Below, piece after piece: positions 3,620 to 26,926 of a stretch of DNA of 32,000 nucleotides; within the stretch, counting starts at the first letter, position 1; each line of letters begins with the position of its first letter. The position numbers and the translations under genes were made by a program. The notes beneath the pieces are model-generated. The model was not told where the DNA came from and did not search any database. It saw only the letters and a program-made list of their open reading frames with translations. The DNA comes from Candidatus Saccharimonadota bacterium (GTDB lineage: Bacteria; Patescibacteriota; Saccharimonadia; Saccharimonadales; Saccharimonadaceae): the NCBI GenBank assembly GCA_020160975.1, contig JAIUPJ010000001.1, positions 30,001 to 62,000 on the forward strand, read 5' to 3'.

Positions 3620-4234
3620 ATGAAAGCACTTCTCGGTACCAAAATTGGTATGACCCAAGTCATCGGCGAAGACGGTGTGGCTATTCCTGTCACATTGATT
3701 CAAGCCGGCCCTGTTACCGTGACTCAGGTGAAGTCTGTCGAAATCGACGGCTACAACGCGGTACAGGTGGCATATGGCGAGGGTAAGAACCTGAGCAAGG
3801 CCGTGGCTGGACATGTGAAACCAGCCGGTGTAACCCCGAAGGAAATTCGGGAATTTCGACTCGACGAACTTGGCGAAGTCAAGGTCGGCGATTCATTTAA
3901 TGTCGAACAGTTTGAGCTGGGCGACAGCGTCGACGCCACGGGTATTAGCAAGGGTAAAGGCTTTGCTGGTACGATCAAGCGTCACAATTTCAAACGCCAC
4001 CGTAAAACGCACGGTGGTAAGGGTAATACTCGTAAGCCAGGTTCAATTGGCTCGATGTACCCGCAAAAGATTTTCAAAGGTAAGCGCATGGCTGGCCACA
4101 TGGGTGCCGAACAAGTCACTGTCAAGAACTTGGTCGTTGCCTATGTCTCAGCTGCAGACAACCTCATCGGTGTCAAAGGCGCTGTGCCAGGCCCAAAGAA
4201 AGGCTTAATCGTATTAAACGGAGGTACTAAGTAA
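3620..4234 (+). CDS. rplC: 50S ribosomal protein L3
   Basis: Starts MKALLGTKIGMTQ and contains KGKGFAGTIKRHNF. AAGAGGG SD lies upstream of ATG 3620; the tracked GTG 3599 is probably too early. Confidence 0.95.
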   Translation: MKALLGTKIGMTQVIGEDGVAIPVTLIQAGPVTVTQVKSVEIDGYNAVQVAYGEGKNLSKAVAGHVKPAGVTPKEIREFRLDELGEVKVGDSFNVEQFELGDSVDATGISKGKGFAGTIKRHNFKRHRKTHGGKGNTRKPGSIGSMYPQKIFKGKRMAGHMGAEQVTVKNLVVAYVSAADNLIGVKGAVPGPKKGLIVLNGGTK

Positions 4235-9891: not shown

Positions 9892-10293
9892 ATGAGTTTA
9901 CAATCTACAGACCCAATCGCTGACCTCCTGACCCGTATCAGGAACGCAAATATGGTGGGCAAAACTGAAATCCGCGTACCAACTTCGAAGCTTAAGAAAG
10001 TCGTGGCTGAACAGCTAGTCAAGAATAAGTATCTGGCAGCTGTCAAAGTCGAAGACGGCAAGCCTCGCGGCACGCTCGTCGTGACGCTCGCAAAGGACGG
10101 CGAGAACTGCCCGATCAACGAAATCACGAAAGTCAGCAAGCCTGGCCGTCGTGTCTACGTGGCTGCCGCTGACATTCCAAAGGTCAAGCAAGGCCGTGGC
10201 ATCGTCCTCGTCTCTACGTCTAAGGGCGTGATGACTGGTGGTGAAGCAGTGAAGCATAAGCTTGGCGGAGAGCTGCTACTAAAGGTTTACTAG
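9892..10293 (+). CDS. rpsH: 30S ribosomal protein S8
   Basis: Contains DPIADLLTRIRNA. Confidence 0.96.
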   Translation: MSLQSTDPIADLLTRIRNANMVGKTEIRVPTSKLKKVVAEQLVKNKYLAAVKVEDGKPRGTLVVTLAKDGENCPINEITKVSKPGRRVYVAAADIPKVKQGRGIVLVSTSKGVMTGGEAVKHKLGGELLLKVY

Positions 10294-10294
10294 T

Positions 10295-10465
10295 ATGCCT
10301 GAAATGCATGGTCGCAAGTTCGAATTCCCAGTGATTAAAACAGATTTATCACCTGAACGAAGAGATGCAGTGAGTAAGTATTTCATGAGAGTCGCGGAAA
10401 GGCTTCATAAATTGAACCCTGTACGCTCCGAATTTCTCAGAGAGAAGAATGTTAAGAAAGGATAA
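10295..10465 (+). CDS. Unlisted small ORF, 56-aa basic protein (MPEMHGRKFEFPVIKTDLSPERRDAVSKYFMRVAERLHKLNPVRSEFLREKNVKKG)
   Basis: Translated by hand; it falls below the ORF-track length cutoff. The ATG lies 1 nt after the rpsH stop, with AAAGG 9 nt upstream. G+C is 69/171 by hand count (about 40%), against about 55% in a 60-nt hand count of early rplF (10741-10800). No family recognised. Confidence 0.35.
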   Translation: MPEMHGRKFEFPVIKTDLSPERRDAVSKYFMRVAERLHKLNPVRSEFLREKNVKKG

Positions 10466-10531
10466 GATATGAATCGAATTGGAAAACTACCAATCAACAT
10501 CACTAGTGGTGTGAAGATCACAGTCGACTCA
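10451..10531 (+). repeat. Direct repeat copy A (rplF RBS plus first 21 codons)
   Basis: 81 nt aligned by eye to 10691-10771 at a 240-nt offset, with 9 mismatches. There are 4 mismatches in the 63 nt from the ATG onward. Confidence 0.85.
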
Positions 10532-10549
10532 TCAACGAAAGGAGCTTAA
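10469..10549 (+). pseudogene. Truncated duplicate of the rplF 5' end (26 codons, MNRIGKLPINITSGVKITVDSSTKGA*)
   Basis: Matches the MSRIGKLPINIPSGVTITVDS start of the real rplF at 10709. The conserved IP is changed to IT, and a stop follows after divergence at codon 22. Confidence 0.7.
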
Positions 10550-10553
10550 AGTT

Positions 10554-10694
10554 ATGGAAATATTCCTGATTATTTTTCTACCGATCATCGCGATGTGCGC
10601 AGTAATTGGCACAATCACCTTGGTTGCAATCGCAAATGAACAGCACAAGATCTTGACGATGCTGCACGAGCAGTCTCAAAAAGATAATAAGTAA
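10554..10694 (+). CDS. Unlisted small ORF, 46-aa hydrophobic peptide (MEIFLIIFLPIIAMCAVIGTITLVAIANEQHKILTMLHEQSQKDNK)
   Basis: Translated by hand. AAAGGAG SD lies 9 nt upstream of the ATG. It has one predicted TM helix followed by a polar/charged tail. G+C is 57/141 by hand count (about 40%). Confidence 0.45.
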   Translation: MEIFLIIFLPIIAMCAVIGTITLVAIANEQHKILTMLHEQSQKDNK

Positions 10695-10771
10695 AGAAAG
10701 GAAATTCTATGAGTCGAATTGGAAAACTACCAATCAACATCCCTAGTGGTGTGACAATCACAGTCGACTCA
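10691..10771 (+). repeat. Direct repeat copy B (functional rplF RBS and start)
   Basis: Partner of 10451-10531. This copy is continuous with the rest of rplF. Confidence 0.85.
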
Positions 10772-11245
10772 GACGTGCTAACCGTCAAGGGAGCCAAAGG
10801 CGAACTGAACGTACCACATCTGAGTGACGTCACGGTAAAAGAAGAGGACGGCAAAATCATCGTCACCCGCAAAGATGACGAGCGCATCGCCAAGGCCCAA
10901 CATGGCCTACAACGAGCATTGCTCAACAACGCTGTCGAAGGAGTCACCAAGGGCTTTGAGAAGCGTCTCGAAGTAAAAGGTGTGGGGTTCCGTGTCGCAA
11001 CCACCAACAATGTACTCGACATGAGCCTCGGCTTCAGCCACCCCGTACAATACAAGGCACCAGAAGGTGTACAGATTACCAACGACAAGATGACAATCAT
11101 TGTTGCAGGTATCGATAAGCAAAAAGTCGGCCAAGTGGCTGCAGAGATTCGCGCGATCAAGAAACCTGAGCCATACAAGGGTAAGGGTATTGCGTACAGC
11201 GACGAAGTAATTTTGCGCAAAGCAGGAAAGGCTGGTAAAAAATAA
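10709..11245 (+). CDS. rplF: 50S ribosomal protein L6
   Basis: Starts MSRIGKLPINIPSGV and contains VKGAKGEL. 178 aa. Confidence 0.96.
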   Translation: MSRIGKLPINIPSGVTITVDSDVLTVKGAKGELNVPHLSDVTVKEEDGKIIVTRKDDERIAKAQHGLQRALLNNAVEGVTKGFEKRLEVKGVGFRVATTNNVLDMSLGFSHPVQYKAPEGVQITNDKMTIIVAGIDKQKVGQVAAEIRAIKKPEPYKGKGIAYSDEVILRKAGKAGKK

Positions 11246-11262
11246 TGATTAGTAATTTTCAG

Positions 11263-11333
11263 GAAAAGAGCAGCCAGTCCCGAGCGATTCACTCGCTCGC
11301 ACTGCGCGATGAGAAAAACGTAGTTTGTCTCAT
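11263..11333 (+). promoter_or_regulatory. Nested-hairpin RNA element, copy 1 (rplF-rplR gap)
   Basis: Inner hairpin 11281-11287/11293-11299, outer stem 11275-11278/11301-11304, second hairpin 11309-11333. It is near-identical to 16929-17002, and the differences are compensatory. Confidence 0.6.
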
Positions 11334-11354
11334 AACCCGAAGGGGGAACAAGTA

Positions 11355-11711
11355 ATGAGTAATTCACTCGCGAAAAAACTACTAAATAAATCACTCCGCA
11401 AAGGCCGTGTCCGTAGCAAAGTTACGGGAACCGCTGAGCGCCCGCGCCTAAGCGTGACTATTAGCAATGTTCATGTGTCAGCTCAGCTGATTGATGACGA
11501 AAAAGGTCACACGCTCGCCAGTGCTACCACTGTAGGTAGTAAGGCAGCCGGTACGATGACCGAGAAGTGTGCTGCACTTGGCACCGAAATCGCCAAGAAA
11601 GCAAAGAAAGTTAAAGTAACCGCAGTCGTCTTCGATCGCAATGGTCGCCAGTACGCTGGTCGCCTGAGCGCTTTCGCTAACGCTGCACGTAAAGAAGGAT
11701 TGGAGTTCTAG
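11355..11711 (+). CDS. rplR: 50S ribosomal protein L18
   Basis: AAGGGGGA SD lies before ATG 11355; the tracked TTG 11325 lies inside the RNA element. L18-like RPRLSV and FDRNG motifs. Confidence 0.94.
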   Translation: MSNSLAKKLLNKSLRKGRVRSKVTGTAERPRLSVTISNVHVSAQLIDDEKGHTLASATTVGSKAAGTMTEKCAALGTEIAKKAKKVKVTAVVFDRNGRQYAGRLSAFANAARKEGLEF

Positions 11712-12854: not shown

Positions 12855-12871
12855 TTGATCTCAGCGACAAA

Positions 12872-12900
12872 AAAGACTCCAGTCTGGAGTCTTTTTGTTT
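12872..12900 (+). terminator. Rho-independent terminator after rplO
   Basis: AGACTCCA/TGGAGTCT stem with a 3-nt loop, then a T5 run. Confidence 0.8.
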
Positions 12901-12945
12901 GTTGCGTTTACTCCAACCTCCGCACCTCACCAGTCGAAGCACCTG

Positions 12946-12976
12946 CTCCCCGTGATCGCGGGAGGGTTTCTGTTTT
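12946..12976 (+). terminator. Second, weaker terminator-like hairpin
   Basis: CTCCC/GGGAG stem plus 2 more bp, followed by GGTTTCTGTTTTT. Confidence 0.35.
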
Positions 12977-13059
12977 TATAAATTGTGAAATAAGTTACCG
13001 ACTCTGGGGTTCACCAGAGTAGACTATAAAACATAAGATAATTTAAGCGGAGAATACTA

Positions 13060-13539
13060 ATGAATAGTATCAAGAAGCTAACGATGGGACTCGCGCTTGT
13101 TTTGCTCAGCGCGTCATGCTCAGCGATGGTGTCGGACGGACAGGCGAGTGCTGCTGCGAGGTGTACTGACTACATGTATGGGTATGGAGGTAATGGAACA
13201 TGTGTTCGCTATTTACAGCAAATGCTCAATGCTGCGGGTGCAAACTGGGCAGAAGCATCATATTACGGCACGTGCTACGGCAGGTCAGTGTCGATGGAAG
13301 TACTTGCAACTGACGGGTCTTTTGGCGGTCGCACTGACGCAAAGGTGCGTAGCTTTCAATACGCCTACTGTCTTGGAACCGATGGCCTCGTAGGCCAGAA
13401 GACCTGGGCAAAACTCTGTCAGCGCGTAAGTGCCTGGTACACCAATACAAGCTACCCAGGTGCTTCAATGTATAACCAGAGTCATAATGCCGGCTACTAC
13501 GCTGGCTGTAGTAAGTACGGCTACTTCGCGCTCCGCTAA
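13060..13539 (+). CDS. Secreted cysteine-rich protein with peptidoglycan-binding (PG_binding_1-like) domain
   Basis: N-terminal signal peptide (MGLALVLLSASCSA). The pattern VRYLQQMLNAAG...TDGSFGGRTDAKVRSFQ...GTDGLVGQKTWAKL matches the PG_binding_1 consensus. GGAG SD lies 7 nt upstream. Confidence 0.7.
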   Translation: MNSIKKLTMGLALVLLSASCSAMVSDGQASAAARCTDYMYGYGGNGTCVRYLQQMLNAAGANWAEASYYGTCYGRSVSMEVLATDGSFGGRTDAKVRSFQYAYCLGTDGLVGQKTWAKLCQRVSAWYTNTSYPGASMYNQSHNAGYYAGCSKYGYFALR

Positions 13540-13558
13540 AAAGTATTGCTTAGAAGGT

Positions 13559-13585
13559 AAAAAGCCTCCTATGTGGAGGCTTTTT
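13559..13585. terminator. Bidirectional terminator between convergent genes
   Basis: 9-bp stem AAAGCCTCC/GGAGGCTTT with A-runs and T-runs on both sides. Confidence 0.8.
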
Positions 13586-13603
13586 ATGTCACCCGAGATG
13601 AAG

Positions 13604-14605
13604 CTATCTACCTATTGCAGTGCTCGTAGCTGCTGAAGCACTACACTCGCTAATATTGATATTGACCTCGATGCGGCGATCGATATCGTCACTTGTCGAT
13701 GATGCGCCACTTATAGGATTGTACAGTCTCACCATATCGGCAGGTACACCACGGGCAATAAGCTCGTTTTTGACCTTTGCTGCTCGTTGATTAGCCAGCT
13801 CTTCACCCGCTGCGGTACTTGATGACTCGCGAACAGACCCACGCACCATGTAAAAGAATGTTTTACCCTTGTTTACTTTATACACCTTGGCGATTTTATC
13901 TAGTTGCGCTGAACCGGTGAAGTCGCTGAGTGTATCAGTAGAGTCGGGCTTAAAGTAGATATTGTCCAGATAGGTGCCGTTACCACTGCTTACCCCAGCG
14001 TCGAGCGCCTCTTGATCGATATAGGAGATATCGGCGTTCAATAGATCGCTTACTGTTAAGCATTTGCCTGTCGAGGGATTCACCGTGGTATCTTTCTCTG
14101 TGTCGGTGACAGTAGTCTTGCCAGTGCTATTTAGGTTAAAGGTCGTGACTTTACCGCTCTTTACGACGACAGTCGTGTCTTTGAGTGTTTCAGAATTTTT
14201 GACAGCAAAATTTACCACAAAACCAATATCCTTGTTCTTGACATCGCTTATGTTGTAGCTGGCGCCTTTGAGTCCAGCAGTAGCACTCTTGGTGAGTGTG
14301 TCGCTGCCACTACCCGAAAGTTCTTTCATCTTTGCGTCGTTGTCGTCGCGGACTGCGTCCATAAAGTTGGTTGCGACAGCTCTCGCCTGAAGCCCAGGAT
14401 ACGCTATCGCAATGAATGCACCGACAGCGAGTAAAATGAGTACAAGTGGCAGTGTGATCCATAGCCAAAGAAGACTTCGCTTACCCTGCGGAGCAGGCGT
14501 CGACACATAGGGCGAGGCTTGTGTTGATGGCGCTTGGGGCTGCGACACTTGTTGTGCCGGCTCCCCTTGTGGACTGACGGGTGGAATGGGTGGCTGTTCG
14601 TTCAT
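13604..14605 (-). CDS. Membrane-anchored protein with P/Q-rich N-terminus and OmpA/MotB-like C-terminal peptidoglycan-binding domain
   Basis: AAGGAG lies before ATG 14605 (tracked start 14650). There is one TM helix (LLWLWITLPLVLILLAVGAFIAIA). The C-terminus NQRAAKVKNELIARGVPADMV...DRRIEVNI resembles the OmpA_C motif. Confidence 0.65.
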   Translation of the reverse strand: MNEQPPIPPVSPQGEPAQQVSQPQAPSTQASPYVSTPAPQGKRSLLWLWITLPLVLILLAVGAFIAIAYPGLQARAVATNFMDAVRDDNDAKMKELSGSGSDTLTKSATAGLKGASYNISDVKNKDIGFVVNFAVKNSETLKDTTVVVKSGKVTTFNLNSTGKTTVTDTEKDTTVNPSTGKCLTVSDLLNADISYIDQEALDAGVSSGNGTYLDNIYFKPDSTDTLSDFTGSAQLDKIAKVYKVNKGKTFFYMVRGSVRESSSTAAGEELANQRAAKVKNELIARGVPADMVRLYNPISGASSTSDDIDRRIEVNINISECSASAATSTAIGR

Positions 14606-14658
14606 AGAACTCCTTGTTAGTTGGTTATGGTTTTGATTATACCTGATCACTCACTTTT

Positions 14659-14687
14659 TCGACATTTTTTCGTCACTCCTGTATACT
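14659..14687 (+). promoter_or_regulatory. Candidate secY promoter
   Basis: TCGACA (14659-14664), 17-nt spacer, TATACT (14682-14687). Confidence 0.5.
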
Positions 14688-14737
14688 ACGATAAGAAGAA
14701 TGACTATAACAATAGTGTAAAAAGGGACTTGTAAGAA

Positions 14738-16782: not shown

Positions 16783-16899
16783 ATGAAAGTTCGTGCGAGT
16801 GTCAAAAAAATCAGCCCTGATGATCAGCTGGTTCGGCGTAAAGGCCGACTCCGTGTCATCAACAAGAAGAAACCTAAGAATAAGCAGAGACAGGGCTAG
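16783..16899 (+). CDS. rpmJ: 50S ribosomal protein L36, cysteine-free form (unlisted ORF, 38 aa)
   Basis: Hand translation gives [46 protein letters not shown] lies upstream. The usual Zn-ligand positions carry S, D, N and K. Confidence 0.9.
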
Positions 16900-16928
16900 T
16901 GAATATCATCAGTTCTTACGCGGTTAGC

Positions 16929-17002
16929 GAAAAGAGCAGCCGGTCTCAAGCGATTTATTCGCTTGCACCGCGCGATGAGAAAAACACTGGAGTTTGTCTC
17001 GT
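16929..17002 (+). promoter_or_regulatory. Nested-hairpin RNA element, copy 2 (rpmJ-rpsM gap)
   Basis: Inner hairpin 16947-16953/16959-16965, outer stem 16941-16944/16967-16970, second hairpin 16975-17002. Confidence 0.6.
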
Positions 17003-17026
17003 TAAGAAAGAAAGGCAGGGTTAAGC

Positions 17027-25201: not shown

Positions 25202-25648
25202 ATGAATAGAACAGGAAAATATCCAGATACAATTTATCGCGTTGGAACAAAAGCTGTCATTAAAAACGAAGAAGGAAAGGTGCTCTGCGTACATGACACG
25301 GGCGAGGAGGACATGTGGTCGCTTCCTGGCGGAGGACTAGATCATGGCGATGACGTGCCTGGCGGTCTAAAGAGGGAGCTAGGTGAAGAGTTGGACTACC
25401 ATGGCGAGGTCGCACTTGAGTACAATAACTCGTGTGTCTACTACTCTCATGCAATTGGAGCTTTCGTTCTCTATCTTGTGTTCGATGTCGAGCTACTCGA
25501 CCAGTACTCTCCTCATGCTGGTATTGACGCAAAAGAGGTCGCCTATCTCAGCCCAGAAGACCTGGCAGGATATAACGACAGGCAAGCTGAAATCATTAAA
25601 AAGTATGGCTTTGGTGAAGCTATTGACTTTCCGATACTAAGACCTTGA
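25202..25648 (+). CDS. NUDIX hydrolase
   Basis: Nudix box GGGLDHGDDVPGGLKRELGEELD. Confidence 0.85.
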   Translation: MNRTGKYPDTIYRVGTKAVIKNEEGKVLCVHDTGEEDMWSLPGGGLDHGDDVPGGLKRELGEELDYHGEVALEYNNSCVYYSHAIGAFVLYLVFDVELLDQYSPHAGIDAKEVAYLSPEDLAGYNDRQAEIIKKYGFGEAIDFPILRP

Positions 25649-25673
25649 GACAAATAAAAGCCTCTGCTATAAT
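25645..25673 (+). promoter_or_regulatory. Promoter of the tRNA-Thr/tRNA-Tyr unit
   Basis: TTGAGA (25645-25650), 17-nt spacer, TGcTATAAT (25665-25673). Confidence 0.6.
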
Positions 25674-25710
25674 ACGTTGAAGCGTAAACGCTGCATCTGA
25701 TTATTTGTAT

Positions 25711-25787
25711 GCCGCTTTAGCTCAGCTGGTTAGAGCAACTGTTTTGTAAACAGTAGGTCCACGGTTCGAATCCGTGAAGCGGCTCCA
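25711..25787 (+). tRNA. tRNA-Thr (anticodon UGU), CCA encoded
   Basis: Cloverleaf folded by hand: acceptor GCCGCTT/AAGCGGC, anticodon stem ACTGT/ACAGT with loop TTTGTAA, T-loop TTCGAAT. Confidence 0.93.
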
Positions 25788-25841
25788 AGATGCATGCATA
25801 AAACATTGTTGTGCCTGCATTACGGAAAGATACAATCTCAC

Positions 25842-25926
25842 GCCGGAATCGTCTAGTGGCAATGACAAGAGACTGTAAATCTCTCGGCGCAAGCCTTCGT
25901 AGGTTCGAGTCCTACTTCCGGCACCA
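25842..25926 (+). tRNA. tRNA-Tyr (anticodon GUA), long variable arm, CCA encoded
   Basis: Acceptor GCCGGAA/TTCCGGC, anticodon loop CTGTAAA, variable-arm stem GGC-GCAA-GCC, T arm GTAGG-TTCGAGT-CCTAC. Confidence 0.93.
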
Positions 25927-25933
25927 AATAAGC

Positions 25934-25962
25934 TATCGGTCCTCGTGACCGGTATTTTATTT
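25934..25962 (+). terminator. Rho-independent terminator after tRNA-Tyr
   Basis: Stem of about 8 bp (25934-25941/25947-25954, one G-U pair) with loop CTCGT, then TTTTATTT. Confidence 0.65.
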
Positions 25963-26051
25963 AGTCTCGACATTGAGCCCGAGAACCGTCCTTTTGCTAT
26001 AGCAGAAGAGGTTTTGCGGAATGAAACGAAGGATGAAGCCTAGCGACGGAT

Positions 26052-26072
26052 GTCCTACTTCCGGCGCCAAAA
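26052..26072 (+). repeat. Direct repeat of the tRNA-Tyr 3' end (att-like)
   Basis: GTCCTACTTCCGGCgCCAAA matches GTCCTACTTCCGGCaCCAAA at 25909-25929 with one mismatch. Confidence 0.75.
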
Positions 26073-26106
26073 GTAAATCACCTAGCAAAATGCTAGGTGA
26101 TTTACT
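26072..26106 (-). terminator. 16-bp perfect hairpin immediately 3' of the minus-strand tRNA-Thr
   Basis: AGTAAATCACCTAGCA pairs with TGCTAGGTGATTTACT across a 3-nt loop. A short T-run follows on the minus strand. Confidence 0.6.
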
Positions 26107-26107
26107 A

Positions 26108-26183
26108 TGGAGCCACGATCGGGGGTTGAACCCGAGACCTCATCCTTACCATGGATGCGCTCTACCAACTGAGCTATCGCGGC
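26108..26183 (-). tRNA. tRNA-Thr (anticodon GGU), CCA encoded
   Basis: The reverse complement folds with acceptor GCCGCGA/TCGTGGC (one G-U pair), anticodon stem CATCC/GGATG with loop ATGGTAA, and T-loop TTCAACC. Confidence 0.92.
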
Positions 26184-26841: not shown

Positions 26842-26858
26842 TCACTGGCTGCTTACTC

Positions 26859-26887
26859 TTGAAAAAATCATCCACCTCTGCTATAAT
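26859..26887 (+). promoter_or_regulatory. rpmG promoter
   Basis: TTGAAA (26859-26864), 17-nt spacer, TGcTATAAT (26879-26887). Confidence 0.6.
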
Positions 26888-26926
26888 CAGTTATTGATTG
26901 TAATTATCAACCACTAAAGGAACTCT

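Follow-up and report, generated by a model that had tools for sequence, protein, structure and literature searches.

A displaced start of rplF in the spc operon of a Saccharibacteria bacterium, a likely scar of cassette stacking between rpsH and rplF

Introduction

Why does the gene for ribosomal protein L6 begin twice in an uncultured Saccharibacteria (TM7) bacterium? The window analysed here is a stretch of 32 kilobases (kb) which comprises the S10-spc-alpha ribosomal protein cluster of this organism. In it, 415 nucleotides (nt) lie between rpsH (9892-10293) and rplF (10709-11245), and this gap holds an incomplete second start of rplF, which forms a direct repeat of 81 nt with the functional one. 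The closest species-level genomes, with L6 proteins 74-86% identical, are named Candidatus Saccharibacteria or Saccharimonadaceae.

The original prediction was that a miniature integrative element had entered the 5' end of rplF and supplied a substitute end. We prefer another reading and give it a probability of roughly 0.6: an irregular recombination, by which two cassettes were stacked at a hot spot of gene exchange, would have left the 81-nt repeat as its scar. The short rplF-like open reading frame (ORF) left in the gap, here called the stub, is itself a scar, and the interest lies in the slot around it. This slot is a small site for cassettes without an apparent recombinase between two essential ribosomal protein genes, in which the start of rplF was probably duplicated by one stacking event.

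Organization of the locus

The gap between rpsH (ribosomal protein S8; PF00410 in the matching loci) and the intact rplF is nearly all coding, on the + strand like both genes, in the order ORF1, stub, ORF2. ORF1 (10295-10465; 56 amino acids (aa), 171 nt) starts 1 nt past the rpsH stop codon (TAGTATG) and ends in ..NVKKG*, with its stop placed on a Shine-Dalgarno sequence. The stub (10469-10549), MNRIGKLPINITSGVKITVDSSTKGA, is a remnant of the rplF 5' end of 26 codons. ORF2 (10554-10694; 46 aa, 141 nt) has a run of 25 apolar residues near its N-terminus, and its product is probably a single-pass membrane peptide.

The upstream copy of the repeat (10451-10531, + strand) consists of the clade-typical Shine-Dalgarno region AAGAAAGGATAAGAT and rplF codons 1-21, the downstream copy (10691-10771, + strand) of a derived Shine-Dalgarno spacer, GGAAATTCT, and the functional rplF codons 1-21. 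Between them is a unique segment of 159 nt of unknown origin (10532-10690, + strand), made up of a 22-nt joint with the Shine-Dalgarno sequence AAAGGAG followed by most of ORF2. The two copies are 89% identical, with 9 mismatches at an offset of 240 nt, and are the longest direct repeat of the window. Their alignment score of 54 was reached by none of 200 shuffles, for which scores of 6-9 were typical. G+C content is 0.37-0.44 in the gap (0.39 for the whole gap) versus 0.51-0.54 in rplF. All that the original prediction had described is reproduced here at the coordinates given, namely the distance between the two genes, the repeat with its ribosome-binding site and 21 codons, the two small ORFs of low G+C content, the downstream copy that reads into intact rplF, and the upstream copy that forms a 26-codon ORF with T12 where relatives have P12.

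Successive ORFs from rpsH over ORF1, stub and ORF2 to rplF are spaced by 1, 3, 4 and 14 nt, and no promoter-like or terminator-like site was matched on the + strand between 9800 and 11500. Because of these short spacings and the absence of such a match, co-transcription from rpsH through rplF and translational coupling are suggested. An Rfam scan of 10200-11400 gave no RNA family; three transfer RNA (tRNA) genes are the only RNA genes of the whole window.

Could the repeat be the trace of a simple tandem duplication? Under this explanation 240 nt of rplF, the ribosome-binding site with the first 222 nt, were copied locally, the upstream copy diverged and ORF2 arose de novo. The offset of exactly 240 nt would suit it, and both copies are the organism's own sequence. 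Past the 81 nt, identity falls at a sharp boundary from 89-97% to 22.6% over the remaining 159 nt of the unit, a random level at or below the mean of 25% at other offsets. Continuous homology over the unit is thus lacking, and gradual divergence could not leave 81 nt near-intact next to 159 nt at random level. Tandem duplication followed by divergence was rejected for this reason, as already argued in the original prediction, and we regard it as highly improbable.

Occurrence of the arrangement and sites without it

In the public collection, 72 blocks have the exact ORF2 protein in their index. The complete layout of rpsH, ORF1, stub, ORF2 and rplF was found in at least 18 independently assembled samples (JGI, ENA, NCBI and Logan contigs), a number which is a lower bound. 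A repeat-induced misjoin is a general risk of metagenome assembly, and one public metagenome-assembled genome, L006, does carry a run of N at 3692-4000 flanked by a duplicated rpsH 3' end (TAGTATGCAG...). The duplication in L006 is a scaffolding artefact, and the rpsH-rplF locus is hard to assemble in mixed strains. For the window, the identical layout from different pipelines, together with several stub haplotypes and three alleles of ORF1, excludes misassembly for practical purposes; the probability left to it is negligible.

Sites without the 240-nt unit were found at several distances. In the sister species (L199-L202; L6 96% identical) the order is rpsH, a gene of 69 aa and rplF, with neither stub nor ORF2. 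Two rare contigs from the species of the window itself, L095 and L193, have a single cassette between rpsH and rplF and again neither stub nor ORF2. In seven further relatives (L005, L008, L009, L013, L106, L108 and L110) only 10-33 nt separate the two genes. The 240 bp recognized in the original prediction are therefore an insertion or duplication relative to the sites that lack them in L199-L202, L095 and L193.

Variability of the rpsH-rplF junction

Saccharibacteria examined in the wider set have 10 to 1377 nt between rpsH and rplF, and in other phyla the gap is mostly 4-50 nt with a maximum of 154 nt. Among the close relatives, the L14-L24, L5-S14 and S14-S8 junctions are all within about -4 to 20 nt, and so are, with few exceptions, the L24-L5 and L6-L18 junctions. 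The slot is occupied in 14 of the 21 lineages with L6 at least 70% identical. Its inserts are nearly always + strand ORFs that start 1-5 nt past the rpsH stop codon, and many of them end in ..KKG* on the Shine-Dalgarno sequence of rplF. These ORFs belong to about 11 mutually unrelated families of single-pass membrane peptides or acidic helical proteins.

Variation is also found within the species of the window, where strains about 98.5% identical over 6 kb carry three unrelated alleles of ORF1, of 56, 59 and 69 aa, and have the stub, ORF2 and the rplF start in common. ORF1 is a separately exchangeable cassette and does not belong to the event that gave rise to the 240 bp. The only true relative of ORF1 is P0012 (77 aa), located in the same slot of another Saccharibacteria genome. 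ORF2 has no homologues outside its own cluster and species. Two large repeat proteins, P0008 and P0009, which were also matched to ORF1 by HMMER, were judged spurious because of their repetitive helical units.

No homologues of the 59-aa allele were found beyond its own species. All placeable relatives of the 69-aa allele occupy the same slot in other species. With a ratio of nonsynonymous to synonymous divergence (dN/dS) of 0.05-0.14, the 69-aa family is under purifying selection; cassettes can, by this measure, be real genes. Between the species of the window and L199 the 69-aa cassette has a dS of 0.72, which is close to the values of its flanks rpsH and rplF (0.5-0.7) and therefore fits vertical descent. 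A Pfam scan of 10 cassette ORFs, and PADLOC and PHROGs scans of an overlapping set, gave nothing at or near family thresholds. AlphaFold models were of low confidence (predicted local distance difference test (pLDDT) 66.8 for ORF1 and 62.8 for the 69-aa family), and the model of the latter had no Foldseek match in PDB below E = 0.1. Literature searches found no description of an rpsH-rplF cassette locus.

The 99-nt rpsH-rplF spacer of L010 (3902-4000) has no sizeable ORF and consists of short repeats of the GGAATAT / CCAATAG type. In L001 (1795-1909) and L002 (3885-4000) a conserved element about 80 nt long lies just upstream of rplF, behind a promoter-like box (TATAAT or TACAAT); it has a closing stem of 12 bp and an inner hairpin with 4 compensatory pairs. 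In L001 a terminator-like hairpin follows the cassette. The element has no Rfam match; an rplF leader RNA is a possible identity, and a split of the operon is apparent upstream of rplF in these genomes. A more distant group (L014, L017, L113, L114, L018 and L112), in which L6 is about 66% identical, has an operon interrupted at the rpsH-rplF junction: rpsB and tsf stand upstream of rplF in L014 (1-4000), it is preceded in L018 and L112 by a promoter-like TATAAT and 1.0-1.4 kb with other genes, and no rpsH was detected upstream of it in L017, L113 and L114.

Exchange of cassettes

The two lineages L194 and L195 belong to different species and share a tract of 358 nt that is 100% identical, with flanks that differ at 20-40 sites per 100 nt. 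The tract (2437-2794 in L194) comprises the last 63 nt of rpsH, a cassette of 68 aa and the first 74 nt of rplF, and it indicates a recent transfer of the cassette between the two species. Among strains of the window species, divergence is raised to 12-18 substitutions per 200 nt in the 3' half of rpsH versus a background of about 3, and the stub is likewise raised in divergence. The combinations of cassette allele with stub haplotype are mixed.

Since the ends of the tracts fall at different points within the flanking genes, these patterns point to homologous and not to site-specific recombination. By this evidence the rpsH-rplF site is a hot spot of homologous recombination with tract ends within rpsH and rplF and no fixed sites. 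Hardly any variation exists across the clade in the first 26 nt of rplF, synonymous sites included, and a homology arm is thereby provided. Saccharibacteria are naturally transformable by means of their com system, and linear DNA is integrated by homologous recombination (PMC10633639).

Stacking of cassettes and origin of the 240-nt unit

Remnants of the flanking genes were found only in loci with more than one cassette, i.e. in the species of the window, with 78-81 nt of the rplF 5' region, and in L002; none was present in the 13 of 13 loci with a single insert. L002 (2964-4000) contains an array of three cassettes (92, 70 and 104 aa) between rpsH and rplF. Both of its joints combine some 17 nt from the 5' end of rplF (ACGAGYCGAATCGGAAR; the ATG has become ACG) with 14-15 nt from the 3' end of rpsH (GAAGGTTTACTAA/G), fused to one another. 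L002 is a second, independent example of stacking. The restriction of remnants to multi-cassette loci indicates that the repeat is a by-product of stacking and not of replacement.

Because the stub keeps the clade-typical spacer and the 69-aa cassette of the sister species abuts rplF directly, the simplest reading takes the stub for the old 5' end of rplF and regards the 240-nt unit as added. The spacer retained by the upstream copy, GGATAAGAT, is the one present at unoccupied sites, for example those of L005 and L108, and with other cassettes of the clade. Both repeat copies carry the lineage-specific I-N-I codons, ATCAACATC, and L199 has ATTGAAATC instead, from which it follows that the duplication postdates the split of the two species and that the replacement end is not foreign.

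The proposed course of events is as follows. The slot between the rpsH stop codon and the ribosome-binding site of rplF holds exchangeable small ORFs, probably co-transcribed and translationally coupled with the ribosomal genes, which are swapped between strains and species by way of homology arms in the last 60-250 nt (approximately) of rpsH and the first 60-75 nt or so of rplF. In an ancestor of the window species that had already separated from the L199 lineage, a piece of 240 nt consisting of the joint, ORF2, its own Shine-Dalgarno spacer and nt 1-63 of rplF would have been joined behind nt 63 of the resident rplF, and the resident cassette was presumably not replaced. One end may have recombined by homology and the other been joined illegitimately, i.e. 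by homology-facilitated illegitimate recombination. A short circularised fragment that entered by a Campbell-type single crossover in the rplF 5' arm would lead to the same outcome. In either case the added piece brought a complete start region, so that rplF would have remained intact, and the old 5' end with its ribosome-binding site would have become the neutral, decaying 26-codon stub in a locus now of two cassettes. The stub would since have served as the right arm for the continuing exchange of the ORF1 cassettes of 56, 59 and 69 aa.

How does a mobile element compare with this course of events? The miniature integrative element of the original prediction would be a 240-bp mobile segment that targets the rplF 5' end and brings a substitute end; a recombinase encoded elsewhere would have to move it. 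Several observations speak in its favour: the ends of the target gene are present as direct repeats (81 nt, 89%), the gene is restored, the sister species lacks the insertion, and the two joints of L002 are alike, both with ATG changed to ACG, which could be read as a repeated attachment site. What was found at the locus agrees poorly with mobility. ORF2 and the unit are confined to the rpsH-rplF locus of the window species; the 159-nt unique segment is single copy, with no second copy in the window, and the first 38 nt of its ORF2 part have no exact DNA match in the viral contig collection. No relevant inverted repeats were present in 10000-11300. The 415-nt gap is made up of ORF1, stub and ORF2, none with a Pfam match, and no integrase or recombinase was found among the 10 large non-ribosomal ORFs of the window (nine with housekeeping-type Pfam matches, one without a match), although a recombinase may be encoded elsewhere in the genome. 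The species' own sequence makes up the substitute 5' end, the cassette tracts end at variable points within rpsH and rplF as homologous recombination predicts, and the L002 joints are simply an rplF piece and an rpsH piece fused together, for which our own reading of the sequences gives a microhomology of about 3 nt. This part of the original prediction is not supported, and an integrative element is considered quite unlikely. A transposon or miniature inverted-repeat transposable element does not agree with the locus either, given the absence of terminal inverted repeats and a duplication of 81 nt instead of 2-15 bp.

A number of points weigh against the stacking of cassettes. For RecA-dependent exchange to take place between diverged species, 60-75 nt is a short homology arm. 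It was considered whether the 22-nt joint behind the stub is a remnant of the rpsH 3' end, as in L002, and this was rejected for lack of significant similarity: the 25-nt stretch 10532-10556, which comprises the joint and the ATG of ORF2, shows no significant similarity to the rpsH 3' end or to rplF (p approximately 0.24-0.36). An earlier residence of ORF2 in the slot is consequently not demonstrated, and a genome in which ORF2 alone lies between rpsH and rplF was not found among the collections searched. Between the two copies, 5 of the 6 positions of the Shine-Dalgarno spacer differ, and the adjoining 63 nt are near-identical in some strains, so that either two alleles of the same species or a later homogenisation is needed. 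The single-cassette contigs of the window species may be assembly collapses over an identical stretch of 56 nt (L095 is a Logan contig and L193 has 1.5x coverage), or else secondary deletions between the repeats. Finally, transcription, translation and function are putative for every cassette.

Features of the stub

The stub of the window strain has N2, T12 and K16 where all 20 of the 20 relatives examined have S2, P12 and T16. At least 9 stub haplotypes exist in a species with strains about 98.5% identical overall; they differ mostly by amino acid changes, and indels do not occur. In other strains the stub hardly differs from the real start of rplF, and the downstream copy is invariant among the conspecific strains examined. 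It was considered whether the variants N2, T12 and K16 had come from the rplF of a donor; no relative has any of them, hence decay. The variation fits neutral decay, and the stub is decaying but probably still translated. The upstream copy had been named as the degenerating one in the original prediction, in agreement with these changes at residues invariant in 20 relatives.

An alternative is that the arrangement is functional. The stub would then be kept as a leader or bridging ORF that hands ribosomes over from ORF1 to ORF2 and rplF, or as a peptide with a role of its own, and the duplication would have been selected. The 26-codon frame is indeed intact in all of the at least 9 haplotypes, without indel or stop, the stub has a strong Shine-Dalgarno sequence and an ATG, its tail holds the AAAGGAG of ORF2, and bridging ORFs are also retained in other insertions of the operon, at 11245-11355 and 16899-17024. 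Against this, most polymorphisms alter residues that are invariant in the real L6, the equivalent remnants in L002 have lost the ATG, and the absence of stops and indels is expected by chance when only 8 sites out of 63 nt vary. A functional stub is unlikely on this balance, and decay of a scar is the preferred explanation. For annotation, short rplF-like ORFs upstream of rplF should be treated with caution as recombination scars, not genes.

Other features of the ribosomal protein clusters

Extra DNA at other ribosomal-gene junctions of the clade is far rarer than at rpsH-rplF. The L24-L5 junction of L106 measures 193 nt, and L002 offers an example of 71 nt. In the window the interval between rplO (L15) and secY (12855-14737) holds one gene at 13060-13539 on the + strand, with a PG_binding_1 domain, and another at 13604-14650 on the opposite strand, which is OmpA-like, and in L194 and L203 secY follows about 100-120 nt after L15. 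This interval is another insertion point in the cluster.

The 110-nt spacer between rplF and rplR (L6-L18; 11245-11355) has a paralogous copy between rpmJ (L36) and rpsM (S13) at 16899-17024. The two copies are 88% identical over 57 nt (core 11263-11319 and 16929-16985), and each contains a bridging ORF (36 and 41 aa, similar to each other) that extends from the upstream stop codon to just before the next start. A hairpin in the spacers shows two compensatory changes (CGAGCGA/TCGCTCG versus CAAGCGA/TCGCTTG; CAGT/ACTG versus CGGT/ACCG). Compared with its counterpart in the sister species L199, the L6-L18 copy shows 97% identity despite a flank dS of about 0.5, and it is absent from more distant relatives, in which L6 and L18 are adjacent. 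The pair may be a structured repeated intergenic element.

A further direct repeat of the window, 35 nt long and 71% identical (25644-25678 and 26858-26892), contains CTCTGCTATAAT and adjoins the tRNA genes at 25711-26183. It probably represents shared promoter sequences.

Implications

The gene order of the spc operon is among the most conserved in bacteria, and turnover at the level of strains at one of its junctions is unexpected, as are the transfer of cassettes between species and the tolerated duplication of the start of an essential gene. As a small and easily amplified locus, the slot can serve as a marker of strain identity and recombination in uncultured Saccharibacteria, and it offers natural examples of the minimal length of homology arms that supports exchange. 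It also yields a list of small proteins of unknown function, probably highly expressed and with at least one family under purifying selection, which are candidates for the strain-specific biology of these epibiotic bacteria with reduced genomes.

A wider interpretation is possible and is offered tentatively, with more doubt than confidence. The rpsH-rplF junction could be a dedicated, horizontally exchangeable site for the expression of small strain-specific proteins, both membrane peptides and acidic helical ones, at the level of ribosomal proteins, with exchange between strains and species via arms of 60-75 nt and natural transformation and with occasional stacking. If this is true, the slot would be a recombinase-free counterpart of an integron or an immunity array, and its cassettes could serve host interaction, defence against phages or competitors, or modulation of the ribosome in epibiotic bacteria.

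Comparison with known systems

Genomic islands and prophages integrate into the ends of genes for tRNA, transfer-messenger RNA or proteins and bring a replacement end with them. The locus resembles them in the duplicated target end present as direct repeats, the intact gene and the non-functional displaced copy. It differs in that no integrase was found in the gap or among the scanned ORFs of the window, that the unit measures 240 bp and shows neither a second copy nor a sign of mobility, with ORF2 at a single locus and only in its own cluster, and that the replacement end is self sequence.

Integron arrays consist of promoterless small ORFs in one orientation behind an upstream promoter, grow by addition and vary in content between strains. 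Small ORFs of the same orientation, apparently promoterless and presumably read from an upstream promoter, growth by addition and strain-variable content are likewise features of the rpsH-rplF slot. Unlike in integrons, no attC-like imperfect inverted repeats at cassette ends and no integrase such as IntI were seen in the respective ranges searched (10000-11300 and the scanned ORFs), and exchanged tracts reach into the flanking genes. Integron cassette arrays have been compared with arrays of orphan modules (PMC5361080), which are treated below.

Flexible genomic islands such as O-antigen and capsule loci are replaced via homologous recombination in conserved flanks, on a scale of 10-30 kb. 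Conserved flanks, non-homologous contents, raised divergence in the flanks and alleles shared across species are common to them and to the slot. The slot measures only 0.15-1 kb, unlike these islands, and is located inside the most conserved operon of the genome.

Closest are the arrays of orphan or displaced modules known from Rhs, contact-dependent inhibition (CDI) and the effector-immunity loci of Vibrio cholerae's type VI secretion system (T6SS), for which the proposed origin is by homologous and homology-facilitated illegitimate recombination (PMC5361080). In these systems, as here, a conserved flank acts as the anchor for recombination, closely related strains carry unrelated alternative modules, modules are transferred horizontally, and rare irregular events stack modules and leave remnants of the flank between them, plain replacement being commoner. 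The corresponding observations at the slot are the unrelated 56-, 59- and 69-aa alleles in conspecific strains, the same module in the divergent backgrounds of L194 and L195 with tract ends in the flanks, and stacked modules with flank remnants in the window species and L002 only. Differences exist in the anchors, which are two essential ribosomal protein genes within the spc operon, in the remnant, which is the 5' end of the downstream essential gene and not the 3' part of a toxin gene, and in the cassettes, which are ORFs of 46-104 aa with no toxin, immunity, defence or phage signature detectable in the Pfam, PADLOC and PHROGs scans or in the models (pLDDT 63-67). The rpsH-rplF slot is therefore not a member of these replacement loci by its content, but it works as they do.

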